Shown here in pieces: positions 36,102 to 44,782 of a DNA stretch of 64,000 nucleotides; position 1 is the first letter of the stretch, and every line of letters begins with the position of its first letter. This DNA comes from Escherichia phage JN02: sequence record MT782071.1. One strand, written 5' to 3'. Made by a program: the position numbers and the translations under genes. Below the pieces are notes generated by a model. The model did not search any database, was not told where the DNA came from, and saw only the letters and a program-made list of their open reading frames with translations.

Positions 36102-36157
36102 AATATTCTCCTCAAGTTGATAGGACTACTATAACATGGCCCTATCAGTTTGTACAC

Positions 36158-36358
36158 TTATTTTGACATTTCTTCGATGTCACGACGATACCCATCACGA
36201 ACTTCACGAAGAGCTTCAAGGCCACACATAGGCTCGATACCAGTAATGTGAACTTGATTAATCTGATACTCTACATCTTCTAACTGAGCGAAAACATAAC
36301 GACGTTCTGCTGCACAACCAGGTTTAGCTTTACCGAAACGTTTATTCAAAGTAGTCAT
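36158..36358 (-). CDS. Hypothetical protein
   Basis: Track ORF 36158..36376; ATG at 36358 preceded by GGAGAT. Confidence 0.55.
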   Translation of the reverse strand: MTTLNKRFGKAKPGCAAERRYVFAQLEDVEYQINQVHITGIEPMCGLEALREVRDGYRRDIEEMSK

Positions 36359-36438
36359 TTTTATATCTCCATTCACTCATTTGTTTTGATAGGTCTATAG
36401 TATCAACAACTACAGACCTTGTAAACTGTTTTGTGAAA

Positions 36439-37395
36439 TTATTTGAAAGGTTTTACCATATGGAAATTTTGTTTGAAACGTTTTACGTAATCGTTGTGTC
36501 CTAAGCTTTGGTACATACTTACAACTTTGCTGTAGTTTTCCCAGGCGTATTCACGGAACCAACCGGAGGTGATGCTTGTGCAGACTTTTTCTAATGCCAT
36601 CATGAAACTGGCTTCAGGGTTAATTTCAAAGTTATTAGGAATCTGAGAACGTTCTAACGCTAGTACACATGATTCTTCGTATACACCGGCCAATTTGACC
36701 ATTTCTGGTAATGATTCGAACTTCTCGCGTGAGGTCATGACTTCAGAACCATCTTTCATATAAAATGTATACGCTGGACGGTCTGTTAGCGCAATGGCTT
36801 CATGAATAGTATCATGGTCATATGTATAGATGTCATCTTTAAAGAACGCACTTTTAGAAGTGTCAAGAACTGGGTGAGCATAGTTCAAGGTTTCTTTCTG
36901 GCGTTTCAGCATAATTTCAGTAAGTTCATCGTTCAGTGTAACACCTTTACCACGAAGATACTGAATATGGTTCATAGTCTTTAAAAAGAATGGATTATTT
37001 TTCTTGAAACGATGAGACATCTTAATTGCAAGACATATCTCAGGAGTTGCCCAATAAAACCCGTTCAAACGGTCTTTAGTCAAATTTTTCTTGGCGTATT
37101 TTAAAAGGTCATAAGAAGACGTGAAATCTTCAGGAGTGAGTTCACCTACTAATTCACGGACATTAGTGATTGCCGGAACAATATATGCTTCAAAATGAGT
37201 TTCGCGTCCATTATGGAAGCATTTGAAAACTTGGACATCAGGGTTATCTTGATGAACATATACACCCATCATTTGATTTTTGAATGCATTCCAAGAACCT
37301 TGGTCTGCAATAAAGTCCCAGTCACTATTTTTGATAGCGTTAGAATCAATAAGACCGTGATAGTGAAGTGCACGAGAACCAATAACTAACATCAT
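36439..37395 (-). CDS. Nucleotidyltransferase-like protein (318 aa)
   Basis: N-terminus VIGSRALHYHGLIDSNAIKNSDWDFI fits a degenerate GS-x(n)-[DE]-x-[DE] NTase signature; weaker than for the 22807..23796 protein. Confidence 0.5.
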   Translation of the reverse strand: MMLVIGSRALHYHGLIDSNAIKNSDWDFIADQGSWNAFKNQMMGVYVHQDNPDVQVFKCFHNGRETHFEAYIVPAITNVRELVGELTPEDFTSSYDLLKYAKKNLTKDRLNGFYWATPEICLAIKMSHRFKKNNPFFLKTMNHIQYLRGKGVTLNDELTEIMLKRQKETLNYAHPVLDTSKSAFFKDDIYTYDHDTIHEAIALTDRPAYTFYMKDGSEVMTSREKFESLPEMVKLAGVYEESCVLALERSQIPNNFEINPEASFMMALEKVCTSITSGWFREYAWENYSKVVSMYQSLGHNDYVKRFKQNFHMVKPFK

Positions 37396-37423
37396 AATAT
37401 TTTCCTCGGATTAATTCATTAAC

Positions 37424-37663
37424 TTAAATTTCACGACATGCGATATTATATTCATCCCAGAGGTCATCATGTGAAGCCTCTACCAATGGAACGATTGTAC
37501 CATTTATGTCTTCATTATAAGGGCAAATTGTGCAGTGTGCATCTTCAAATCGGATGCCTTTGTGTTCAGATTTTTTATAACGCATATCGAATATCTTTGC
37601 AAACTTTTCACGAGTAACGGTTTTAGCAACCACTTCGGTTCCAATACTTTCGTAATAAATCAT
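37424..37663 (-). CDS. Hypothetical protein (79 aa)
   Basis: Track ORF with ATG start; Cys/His-containing (HCTICPYNEDINGT); early promoter upstream. Confidence 0.6.
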   Translation of the reverse strand: MIYYESIGTEVVAKTVTREKFAKIFDMRYKKSEHKGIRFEDAHCTICPYNEDINGTIVPLVEASHDDLWDEYNIACREI

Positions 37664-37691
37664 TGTGGACTCCGTTTAATTTGATAGGACT

Positions 37692-37720
37692 ACTATAACA
37701 TAGTCCTATCTTGTTGTAAA
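37692..37720 (-). promoter_or_regulatory. T4-type early promoter with palindrome flanking the -10
   Basis: Minus strand TTTACA, 17 nt, TATAGT; GATAGGACT and AGTCCTATC arms flank the -10; the element TATAGTAGTCCTATCAA recurs at ~36117, ~41091 and ~44745. Confidence 0.65.
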
Positions 37721-37725
37721 CTGTT

Positions 37726-37923
37726 TTAGCAAGAATAACTAGATGATACCCAGCCTTGAACAGTGATACTATTGTTGGATAATGATATCGCGTTCTGGAG
37801 ATTCAGACCTGCGTTATCTTCAATCCATAATGTAACTTCTTCGCGTTCTTCTGTTGCAATTTGGAACAGGTTTTCCAGGGCAGCTACTGCCGTACGTACA
37901 GCACAATCTAATTCACGAGACAT
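37726..37923 (-). CDS. Small protein, C-terminal ...SSxxC family (65 aa)
   Basis: Ends GWVSSSYSC; first of three tandem paralogs. Confidence 0.6.
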   Translation of the reverse strand: MSRELDCAVRTAVAALENLFQIATEEREEVTLWIEDNAGLNLQNAISLSNNSITVQGWVSSSYSC

Positions 37924-37932
37924 ATGATTTCC

Positions 37933-38205
37933 TTAGCAAGTGTGAGAAGATGCAATCCAACCACCAGTTTCGAGGCTCAGGTTGTAGTCGTATTGGTAAA
38001 CGTCGGCCCATTCAGCATAGCCGTTTTTTGTACAACGTTCAAGATCGGCTTTAAGCTGTCCGGGTGAATGATAAGTTCCACCCATACCATAAGCTGGATA
38101 CAAGTCGAATGTTGTGTTTTGTTTATCAGCGATTTCTTTGGCAGCCTCAATAGCTGCATAGATTTTTGCTACAGCTTCAGCCAGTTCGGTTTGTTCTTTA
38201 GACAT
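37933..38205 (-). CDS. Small protein, C-terminal ...SSxxC family (90 aa)
   Basis: Ends GWIASSHTC; shares a helical N-terminal region and YGMGGTYHSPG core with the next ORF. Confidence 0.6.
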   Translation of the reverse strand: MSKEQTELAEAVAKIYAAIEAAKEIADKQNTTFDLYPAYGMGGTYHSPGQLKADLERCTKNGYAEWADVYQYDYNLSLETGGWIASSHTC

Positions 38206-43202: not shown

Positions 43203-43208
43203 ATATAT

Positions 43209-43282
43209 GACCCAGACCAGATTCGAACTGGTAACCTTTCCCTTATGAGGGGACTGCTGCTAACCATTGAGCTACAGGGCCT
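43209..43282 (-). tRNA. tRNA with CAU anticodon (Ile-lysidine type or Met)
   Basis: Manual fold: acceptor GGCCCTG/CTGGGTC, anticodon loop CTCATAA, T-arm ACCAG-TTCGAAT-CTGGT; T4 encodes an AUA-reading tRNA-Ile next to tRNA-Arg. Confidence 0.65.
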
Positions 43283-43360
43283 AAATAACTTTCTATTATG
43301 AAAGGCACTTTAGAGCACCTTTGGTAATAGAGGGTATGAATTAATAATAACACATAATTC

Positions 43361-43876
43361 TTAAAGCAAATCAATCATTTTAACAGTCGGCAAAACAATT
43401 TCTTCTTCAATATAAGCGAATTCAACACGTTCAACTACACGCAAGAAATCATAATCATAATATTCAGAAGCATGGCCAAGAATATCAATGAGACCTTCAG
43501 ATATCTTATTACCATTCACAAAGAATAAGTCAAATACGCGTTCTTCATCTTCTTCGGATTTATTACCAAGGTCGACTTCAATATCAAAGACCTTTTTAAT
43601 GAATTCTGGATAAAGCTGGTCTGAGAACAGTCCTTCAACCAAGTATTCATAGATTAAAAGCGAGCAATCGCTGAACAGTGTATTACCACAGTAACGTTCA
43701 GCTTTAGTGCTAGAATGACGACTCTTAAATTTCTTCAAGAGATATTTAAACTGTTGGAGCTCATGCTCTTCTACACCAAATAATGTTTTGGTTTTATAGT
43801 TGTCGCCGTCATTTTCCCAAGTAGTGACATCAATTACGTAGCCCTTAGGAATTGTACTGCCTAAACGAATATTCAT
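43361..43876 (-). CDS. Hypothetical protein (171 aa)
   Basis: Track ORF with ATG start; acidic. Confidence 0.65.
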   Translation of the reverse strand: MNIRLGSTIPKGYVIDVTTWENDGDNYKTKTLFGVEEHELQQFKYLLKKFKSRHSSTKAERYCGNTLFSDCSLLIYEYLVEGLFSDQLYPEFIKKVFDIEVDLGNKSEEDEERVFDLFFVNGNKISEGLIDILGHASEYYDYDFLRVVERVEFAYIEEEIVLPTVKMIDLL

Positions 43877-43880
43877 TTAA

Positions 43881-44171
43881 TCACCATACCATATTAATGT
43901 AAGTATACTCAATACATTCAAGATTTAAAGGATTCTTGAAAATATCATATTCAAGAGGGCCTTTTTCTGTTTCAATAAAGAAATCAAAGTTAACTGTGTT
44001 AAATTTATCGTCTTCGCAGAGTAATTTAACCTGTGAAGACGAACGGTCGATGTAAACCTTTTCAACTTCAAAATATGTTAAAATGCCATAATCATCGACT
44101 AGTGCTTTAGCTGCACGTTGATCGCTTTCATATCCATTCTCGACAGATTTTACTTTAGCATAAAGAATCAT
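43881..44171 (-). CDS. Hypothetical protein (96 aa)
   Basis: Track ORF. Confidence 0.6.
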   Translation of the reverse strand: MILYAKVKSVENGYESDQRAAKALVDDYGILTYFEVEKVYIDRSSSQVKLLCEDDKFNTVNFDFFIETEKGPLEYDIFKNPLNLECIEYTYINMVW

Positions 44172-44530
44172 GAGTGTTCCACCACTTCAAAAGTATGTGC
44201 ACTTACAATCTGGTACCAGTCAAAATTTTCTTCAGCATTTTTGTAGATTTCACGAAGAGCTTCAACAGTTTTTCCTGTAGCAACAAGATCATCAATACCG
44301 CCAAGAGGATAACAGTCGTAACCAGCAAACAGAAGGAAATTAATAGTTTCTGTAGGTTCTGGATGCAGTGTACCATTGTCATCGACTACTTCAAAGAACA
44401 TATAACCAGGCGATTTAGATTTAATCCAAGCCCATGCTTGAGCCGCTGAATCAAATGGTTTGCGTATCAAACGACAATCAGGGTCTTTAGAAGGATTTGC
44501 TTCAAAATCCGCATATACGTGATATTTCAT
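44168..44530 (-). CDS. Hypothetical protein
   Basis: Track ORF 44168..44548; ATG at 44530 with AAGGTGAG SD. Confidence 0.55.
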   Translation of the reverse strand: MKYHVYADFEANPSKDPDCRLIRKPFDSAAQAWAWIKSKSPGYMFFEVVDDNGTLHPEPTETINFLLFAGYDCYPLGGIDDLVATGKTVEALREIYKNAEENFDWYQIVSAHTFEVVEHS

Positions 44531-44531
44531 T

Positions 44532-44738
44532 TTACTCACCTTTTGCAATTTTATCCATAACGATAGCGATTAAGCCGATTAGAAATGCTACTACCAATGA
44601 GATAGAATTTTCTGTTGTTGTCAGTAGTCCACAAATGAATCCTACAAACATCGAAAAACTAAAAGCCATTGAAGCAATTACTACAGCAACATTACGAATC
44701 AGTTCAGCGCGTTTCATTTTATTTCTCCATTTACTCAT
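44532..44738 (-). CDS. Small membrane protein (68 aa)
   Basis: Two TM-like segments (VAVVIASMAFSFSMFVGFICGLL; LVVAFLIGLIAIV). Confidence 0.55.
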   Translation of the reverse strand: MSKWRNKMKRAELIRNVAVVIASMAFSFSMFVGFICGLLTTTENSISLVVAFLIGLIAIVMDKIAKGE

Positions 44739-44753
44739 TTGATTTGATAGGAC

Positions 44754-44782
44754 TACTATATCATAGTCCTATCAGCATGTAA
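44754..44782 (-). promoter_or_regulatory. T4-type early promoter with palindrome flanking the -10
   Basis: Minus strand TTTACA, 17 nt, TATAGT, with GATAGGACT/AGTCCTATC arms. Confidence 0.65.

Follow-up and report, generated by a model that had tools for sequence, protein, structure and literature searches.

Stem-loops built into early promoters were defined as PeSL elements in the phages RB49 and phi1 by Arbiol et al. (2010, PMC2839356), who proposed that they attenuate transcription coming from upstream and that recombination at them moves cassettes of ORFans. Mini-circles were demonstrated in that work for RB49/phi1 only, and terminator activity was shown for only one RB49/phi1 stem-loop. 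The PeSLs were later extended to PST/T4 and nt-1/KVP40 (Comeau et al. 2014, PMC4122927), and the stems reported in the two papers include ones that overlap the -10 box. The elements of the internal protein (IP) loci of T-even phages (Repoila et al. 1994) were regarded by Arbiol et al. as analogues, that is, T4 early promoters with weaker, AT-rich stems. Neither of the two PeSL papers mentions RB69, translation or sequestration. Hairpins with an embedded promoter are described in T4 reviews only for the late-expressed e, soc, 49 and I-TevI (Uzan & Miller 2010, PMC3014915), and no hairpins spanning early promoters are mentioned in the 2010 T4 reviews. Apart from the PeSL papers and the reviews, a full-text literature search, with Repoila 1994 and Miller 2003 outside its scope, revealed no account of dyads in T4 early promoters. 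Here, we present an analysis of a 64,000-nucleotide stretch of Escherichia phage JN02 (record MT782071.1; the window), in which a 17-mer, TATAGTAGTCCTATCAA, recurs at four predicted early promoters and, at some of them, takes part in an inverted repeat (dyad) around the -10 element.

The main result of the analysis is that the dyad goes beyond the promoter consensus, as the left arm covaries with the right arm of its own promoter. The spacer of a T4-like early promoter is thus no neutral filler, and it evolves together with the sequence that follows the -10 of the same promoter.

The repeated 17-mer and its four promoters

All features described below lie on the minus strand of the window unless stated otherwise. 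The 17-mer was found in four exact copies, at 36117-36133, 37681-37697, 41081-41097 and 44744-44760, where 0.01 matches are expected by chance. A copy with two mismatches is present at 25112-25128, and five copies were reached in none of the 100 shuffles. The original prediction of at least four early promoters sharing a repeated block was borne out, since all the exact copies lie at promoters detected with a position weight matrix (PWM). The PWM was built from the -35 and -16 to -7 blocks alone, and consequently the arms of the dyad had no role in the selection of promoters. In the 1-47 kb part of the window, 26 sites were found on the minus strand and none on the plus strand; in 108 T4-like loci (2.18 Mb), the scan gave 660 sites on the early-gene strand versus 7 on the opposite one. 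A generic sigma-70 scan returned 10/12 matches with TG at 44783, 41120 and 37720. The 36-45 kb region is 95-98% identical, across almost its full length, to Mosigvirus (RB69-like, T4-type) phages. Judged by sequence, each of the four sites is an early promoter (sigma-70, T4-type) belonging to an RB69-like phage.

Read along the minus strand, an A-rich upstream region is followed by GTTTAC (-35), an 18-nt spacer, TATAGT (-10), AGTCCTATCAA, the Shine-Dalgarno (SD) sequence and ATG. The shared 17-mer consists of the -10 hexamer TATAGT and a discriminator/start-site block, AGTCCTATCAA, which is common to about one-fifth of Mosigvirus early promoters. Transcription start positions were derived from sigma-70 geometry. 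The left arm lies inside the 18-nt spacer (about -26 to -17), and AGTCCTATC follows directly after the -10 and reaches the predicted start site, so that the right arm extends from about -6 to +4, with the symmetry centred near -11. Each of the four promoters fills a gap of ~60 nt between two small co-directional early genes; for example, a stop codon at 37726-37728 is followed by a -35 at 37716-37721 and an ATG at 37661-37663.

Two of the four promoters had been predicted to carry the complementary arm, GATAGGACT, in the spacer, and it is indeed present at 37702-37710 and 44765-44773, where it extends into a hairpin of 11-12 bp around the -10. The promoter P44760 (44739-44787; PWM score 21.4) has the -35 GTTTAC at 44779-44784, the -10 TATAGT at 44755-44760, the left arm TGATAGGACT at 44765-44774 and the right arm AGTCCTATCA, with the predicted transcription start, at 44745-44754. 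Folded as RNA, it forms a 12-bp stem with a hexaloop (-17.9 kcal/mol, z -3.65), and the -10 is located in the loop. The same arrangement is seen in P37697 (37664-37725; -10 at 37692-37697), in which RNA folding pairs GATAGGACT with AGTCCTATC at 37683-37691 in an 11-bp stem with a hexaloop (-19.1 kcal/mol, z -3.95). The remaining two copies are less regular. P36133 (36102-36157; -35 GTGTAC at 36152-36157, -10 at 36128-36133) has an imperfect left arm, TGATAGGGCC, at 36138-36147 and the right arm at 36118-36127, and it forms a weaker hairpin with one G.U pair (z -1.2). P41097 (41064-41121; -35 ATTTAC at 41116-41121, -10 at 41092-41097, right arm at 41083-41091) is the sole 17-mer copy without any left arm, and it formed no hairpin as RNA. 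At the position of its left arm, the spacer contains the stop codon (41110-41112) of a 54-aa upstream ORF (open reading frame). The two-mismatch copy belongs to P25128 (25112-25152), whose arms are compensated: TTGGTAGG at 25136-25143 and CCTACCAA at 25112-25119.

Complementarity of the arms within promoters

Nolan et al. (2006) predicted 58 early promoters in RB69, with the sole remark that C is preferred at -3 to -1. We used 56 of these promoters as the RB69 set, with two left out and RB69 90-124 kb outside the set. The broad set comprised the promoters of the 108 T4-like loci, collapsed to 168 sequence clusters; stricter clusterings, with 84 and 36 clusters, were also tried. Single-linkage clustering at 60% identity put 175 promoters into one cluster and was kept purely as an over-conservative control. 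The T4 promoters were predicted over positions 1-50000, the RefSeq record being without promoter features. When IMG/VR was searched by pattern for P44760-leader orthologues, only 11 loci were obtained, which were not used, and a motA anchor gave only 2 loci.

In the RB69 set, the mean stem length was 4.62 within a promoter versus 3.79 between promoters, and the duplex energy was -6.2 kcal/mol within versus -4.05 between. When the downstream segment was extended to +28, the energies were -9.3 and -6.5, respectively. In the permutation test, the observed stem length and both duplex energies were each matched in 0 of 20000 permutations. The 168 clusters gave a duplex energy of -8.9 within versus -6.1 between (p<=1e-4), and the excess remained in the 36 very conservative clusters (p<=2e-4). 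In a fixed register, 182 cells were changed on both sides among 143 representatives, compared with 141.6+-12 after shuffling (0/500), and register 0 scored highest among the slid registers. The original prediction had named as its refutation the case in which the palindromic positions are merely part of the standard T4 early-promoter consensus. This is not so, as the arms covary beyond that consensus.

The covariation can be followed in individual promoters. The first palindrome, GATAGGACT/AGTCCTATC, has the compensated variants GGTAGGACT/AGTCCTACC and GATAGGGCT/AGCCCTATC, as well as GACAAGACT/AGTCTTGTC in T4 dmd. Unrelated pairs of arms occupy the same place in other promoters: GATGAGGTA/TACCTCATC, GTGTAGGGAT/ATCCCTACAC, TGAGAGC/GCTCTCA, CGAGAGA/TCTCTCG and, in T4 motB, GGGACC/GGTCCC. 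In total, at least 15 different arm sequences are found in one register, with compensatory changes and with variable arm lengths and loop sizes.

These observations bear on the proposal, made in the original prediction, that the dyad is an operator for a dimeric regulator. A dimer bound at the symmetry centre near -11 would occlude the -10 and could shut off early promoters, a process whose mechanism is not understood according to T4 reviews, and the arm sequence is fairly uniform within the TATAGT subfamily. Arms that differ between promoters and nevertheless covary argue against one dimeric operator protein, and so do the G.U pairs in the stems. Moreover, two of the four 17-mer promoters have no good left half-site, ~60% of the early promoter clusters have no dyad, and the right arm is conserved independently, because its core, CCTATCAA, is part of the start-site consensus and the majority sequence among the 56 RB69 promoters. 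We consider an operator very improbable. Early-promoter shut-off is left unexplained by the finding alone.

The stems fall into several positional types. In class A, the stem straddles the -10; it was found in 16% of the 168 clusters versus 1.7% of cross pairs (p 1e-18). In class B, the first part of the spacer is paired with the downstream SD sequence (18.5% of clusters versus 8.4% of cross pairs, p 3e-5). The third type lies wholly within the spacer, as in AACCA-AGGA-TGGTT, and its stems of at least 5 bp were found in 12 of the 168 clusters versus 3 in shuffles. The original prediction also cited related palindromes at further sites, and the promoters 18320, 19316, 20958, 36402 and 41310 all carry one. 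An identical hairpin, CAACCA-AGGA-TGGTTG, is located between the -35 and -10 of P18320 (18324-18339) and P19316 (19320-19335). The compensated or G.U variants of this spacer-internal hairpin are CACCA-AGGA-TGGTG in P41310 (~41314-41327) and CGCCA-AGGA-TGGTG in P40812 (~40816-40829). The promoters 20958 and 36402 carry the palindrome AGGTCT/AGACCT.

Stems covering the SD sequence occur in the window at P29496 (regB), P33109 (denV), P25843, P41681 and P11542. The regB promoter (29469-29519; -35 at 29514-29519) pairs TTCTCCTCTAGTTG of the spacer (29500-29513) with CAACTAGAGGAGAA at 29469-29482, which holds the GGAG of the regB SD sequence. As RNA it folds into a 14-bp stem (-23.2 kcal/mol, z -3.15) with the -10 (29491-29496) in the loop. 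The hairpin is kept, with differing arm sequences, in loci where RegB is only 55-77% identical (L053:9939-10003, L058, L060 and L062 among them). Some of the loci that keep it, with a RegB 77% identical to that of the window, have the promoter -10 TATAAT and were taken to be T4-type. RNAalifold found only 7 weak pairs in 12 orthologues of the regB promoter, MAFFT mis-registering arms of unequal length; folded singly, each sequence formed the hairpin. In the denV promoter (33080-33133), TTCCTCCAAG of the spacer (33118-33127) pairs with CTTGGAGGAA at 33080-33089, which holds the SD sequence, in a 10-bp stem (-18.5 kcal/mol, z -3.23). The same pairing of spacer and SD sequence was found in L034 and L037. 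The likely start of denV is the ATG at 33074-33076, rather than the TTG at 33088 given by the ORF finder. Directly upstream of the -35 of P25843, which also has a class B arm, we noticed a terminator-like GGGGC...T-run (25853-25880), that is, a layout with a stem-loop upstream of the promoter.

Strand preference and the level of action

Because one arm lies upstream of the transcription start, the symmetry had been assigned to DNA in the original prediction. This reasoning does not hold, as transcripts reading through from upstream promoters would hold both arms, the promoters being located within co-directional gene strings. T4 early transcripts extend into downstream genes, and read-through is plausible here, since the promoters are co-directional, lie ~60 nt from their neighbours and have no preceding terminators.

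The two strands also differ in their pairing. For the strand comparison, arm-to-arm duplex energies with a cross-promoter control took the place of whole-segment folding. The sense strand gave the better energy in 97 clusters and the antisense strand in 43 (p 6e-6), and at progressively stricter clustering the ratios were 75:31, 48:27 and 22:7; the cross-promoter control gave 4345:3928 (about 52:48). A pure Watson-Crick helix is equal on both strands, and therefore the sense bias reflects G.U pairs tolerated on the transcribed strand. Fixed-register mismatches under the strictest filter comprised 17 G.T versus 5 A.C (controls 56%), a suggestive result, although the sample is small and its count is affected by the redundancy of orthologues. 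The favoured explanation is an RNA hairpin in the transcripts that read through from upstream promoters, because of the sense-strand bias, the SD arms of class B, which are meaningful in RNA only, and arm and loop sizes that are poor for cruciform extrusion.

The last of these points concerns the alternative in which the dyad acts on DNA, where a cruciform, or a hairpin in single-stranded intermediates of replication or recombination, would draw structure-specific nucleases (endonuclease VII, gp46/47) and the resulting breaks would create recombination hot spots. Indel junctions do cluster at promoters. In RB49, one mini-circle crossover was mapped to the loop of a PeSL, and a stem-loop-binding recombination protein was speculated upon (Arbiol et al. 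2010, PMC2839356). The arms found here have just 6-14 bp and the loops 6-30 nt. Such short arms and long loops are unfavourable for extrusion from duplex DNA. Furthermore, a duplex cruciform requires pairing in both strands, yet the sense strand pairs better, and most of the mapped junctions fall between -42 and -27, on the edge of the -35 and away from the dyad centre. The SD arms of class B would have no meaning in DNA. The one-strand G.T bias could also come from single-stranded DNA, a point taken up below. On balance, we regard action at the DNA level as unlikely.

The dyads might also be functionless, either inherited with duplicated cassettes or made by templated (quasi-palindrome) mutation or gene conversion. 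T4 is a classic system for quasi-palindrome-templated mutation. Promoter subfamilies have spread by duplication or recombination, and the chimeric promoters of L020, in which the arms do not match and the -10 and right arm are duplicated in tandem, would fit such an origin. Nevertheless, the excess of self-complementarity survives the collapse to 36, 84 or 168 clusters, and many of the arm sequences are unrelated. The pairs that templated mutation creates are Watson-Crick and favour neither strand, in disagreement with the sense-strand G.U bias. The regB hairpin, kept with differing arms in diverged loci, is a further argument for function. This makes an origin without function quite unlikely in our judgement.

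According to the RNA-level explanation, the spacer of each promoter would be tuned to complement the bases that follow closely on the -10 of that promoter. A read-through transcript from an upstream promoter would then form a hairpin whose loop holds the -10 sequence, while the transcript from the local promoter, starting inside the 3' arm, would be unstructured. In the second class, the spacer would provide an anti-SD sequence. The element could in this way separate two mRNA isoforms and insulate a small gene cassette from upstream transcription by attenuation, blocked translation or altered processing. At the same time, the repeated promoter cassette would offer short homologies for the insertion, deletion or swapping of single genes, as a PeSL element. 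We consider this joint reading, with early promoters in RNA hairpins, isoform separation and recombination sites of the PeSL type, to be reasonably probable.

Several points weigh against the joint reading. Whole-segment folding of the 56 RB69 promoters gave z values of -1.58 for the sense and -1.32 for the antisense strand, so that both strands beat shuffles and the difference between them was not significant. The sense preference would equally fit a hairpin in single-stranded non-template DNA, where G.T is the most stable mismatch. The class A hairpins are followed by a mean of 1.5 T in 8 nt, and therefore, with the U tract missing, they are not canonical intrinsic terminators; they also stop ~10-20 nt ahead of the SD sequence. 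The RB69 orthologue of P44760 has one uncompensated A.C mismatch in the dyad. A strong dyad is absent from the ~60% of promoter clusters mentioned above, and the element is therefore optional. Finally, the start site, the read-through transcription, the formation of the hairpin in vivo and its effect on RNA are all inferred from the sequence. A simple terminator scan of the minus strand reported none of the promoter hairpins, and the simple terminator pattern was matched solely by the antisense strand of 37683-37710.

For class B, the RNA-level explanation leads to a more specific expectation. RegB requires single-stranded GGAG and cuts its own SD sequence, and hence the class B read-through RNA, including that of regB, should be untranslatable and RegB-resistant. 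A more far-reaching proposal, which we put forward tentatively, is that the early-promoter stem-loops are selected at the RNA level as isoform switches, and that about 1/6-1/5 of T4-like early promoters have a spacer anti-SD arm that silences downstream translation in read-through RNA and hides GGAG from RegB. If this were true, expression of regB, denV and such genes would be confined to their own short-lived early transcripts, and the elements would be an early-promoter counterpart to the hairpins that enclose late promoters in e, soc, 49 and I-TevI, that is, a general and uncatalogued layer of temporal control. The promoters of regB and denV are testable cases, in which the ribosome-binding sites would be buried in the read-through RNA only.

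Gene cassettes and comparison with known elements

The original prediction also suggested a recombination hotspot that shuffles promoter-gene cassettes, to be checked by analysing junctions in related genomes. This part agrees with the published PeSL model and is supported by the comparison with RB69 and IMG/VR relatives, in which indel junctions are found from -42 to +8 relative to promoters, on either side of single small ORFs. A cassette at 36158-36420, present here and not in RB69, consists of the core of P36402 and a 66-aa ORF (phrog_6200, unknown function), with junctions at -30 of P36402 and -36 of P36133. A second one, at 40536-40827, is missing from RB69 and L008 and contains the core of P40812 and a 93-aa ORF (phrog_13919, unknown function); its junctions are at -27 of P40812 and -42 of P40505. 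The ip gene (44788-45075), beside 57B and likewise bounded by promoters, was lost by deletion from L006 and has been replaced in L008 (L006:10493; L008:10493-11196). The junctions, 45133, 45053 and 44784, lie in the first codons of the gene and at or close to promoters. The list of junctions versus relatives comprises 36420/36157, 40827/40535, 44784, 38609 (-36 of P38585), 41661 and 45107/45133. Over all loci, 18 of 125 breakpoints were within -45 to +25 of a promoter versus 7.4% expected (p 0.005). Since the cassette is repeated dozens of times, it supplies short homologies for insertion, deletion and swapping of single-gene cassettes. For annotation, this explains why small ORFan cassettes are gained and lost with promoters at the junctions.

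Among the relatives, some promoters are chimeric, with arms that do not match. In L020 (~11150-11260), the -10 and the right arm (TACTATTACCTCATCAA) are tandemly duplicated, and the left arm comes from another promoter subfamily; the duplication looks like a product of recombinational slippage.

Annotated relatives place the 36-45 kb region between gene 57B with the internal-head-protein genes and frd.3 with the e.x genes. Every gene in the region is on the minus strand, and tRNA-Arg and tRNA-Met are located at 43125-43281; these two tRNAs were the only matches in the Rfam scan, which gave no family for the promoter hairpins. The ORFs flanking the promoters (61-101 aa) matched PHROGs of unknown function only, except for one internal virion protein. 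According to PHROG matches, P44760 lies between the internal-head-protein gene (44788-45075) and a tRNA.4-like ORF. The ORF finder started the latter at the ATG at 44738. Its PHROG match starts only at residue 8, and the ATG at 44715-44717 has a GGAG ahead of it; therefore, the product probably has 61 aa and starts at this second ATG. Early genes or the gaps between them also hold two GC-rich tetraloop hairpins that do not belong to the promoter dyads: GGAGGAC-CGGA-GTCCTCC at 39839-39856, terminator-like on both strands, and GGGACC-CGAA-GGTCCC at 41736-41751 on the plus strand.

The elements were compared with four kinds of known systems. Rho-independent terminators share with them a stable stem-loop in an intergenic region of a polycistronic unit. 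In contrast to such terminators, the stems here are AT-rich, no U tract follows and the loop contains a predicted functional -10. The hairpins of T4 e, soc, 49 and I-TevI (PMC3014915) are closer, as the promoter lies inside the hairpin and the transcript from the internal promoter is without the 5' arm; their 3' arm contains the SD sequence, as in class B (regB, denV and others). They have, however, a late promoter (TATAAATA), and translation is limited to late times, whereas an early promoter (GTTTAC and TATAGT) is embedded here. Moreover, the right arms of the four class A elements end at about +4, well short of the SD sequence.

The conserved motifs in the promoter leaders of the T-even IP loci (Repoila et al. 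1994, according to Arbiol et al. 2010) belong to the same locus, with ipI-like genes beside 57B at 44.7-45.1 kb. They also have T4-type early promoters, weaker AT-rich variable stem-loops and swapped IP genes. Unlike those IP-locus motifs, promoters with dyads are found here throughout the early regions, in RB69 and T4 as well as in other T4-like phages.

The likeness to PeSLs is the most extensive. A strong early promoter with -35, -10 and an A/T-rich upstream region is present, its activity being predicted from sequence. The stem-loop is located between the -35 and -10 (P18320, P19316) or overlaps the -10 box (P44760, P37697), and G-T pairs are tolerated in the stems. Many copies (26 in 47 kb) occur in hyperplastic regions beside small ORFans, and indels between close relatives have their junctions inside the elements. 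There are also differences. The PeSL promoter is a perfect sigma-70 consensus, while that found here is the T4-type GTTTAC...TATAnT. Termination was observed for one RB49/phi1 stem-loop, whereas canonical termination is unlikely here, with no U tract. The stems lack the polyG/polyC runs of the RB49/phi1 PeSLs and are mixed or AT-rich (GATAGGACT, TGAGAGC), and the AT-rich arms match the analogue type that Arbiol et al. (2010) recognised at the T-even IP loci. The recombination half of the original prediction is supported and had been published before, and no new kind of system is described. We conclude that the four elements are a Mosigvirus instance of the published PeSL class, real, statistically solid and largely already known, to which the present analysis adds the extension of the PeSL concept to the RB69 group, the quantitative covariation of the arms, the sense-strand bias and the anti-SD class represented by regB and denV.

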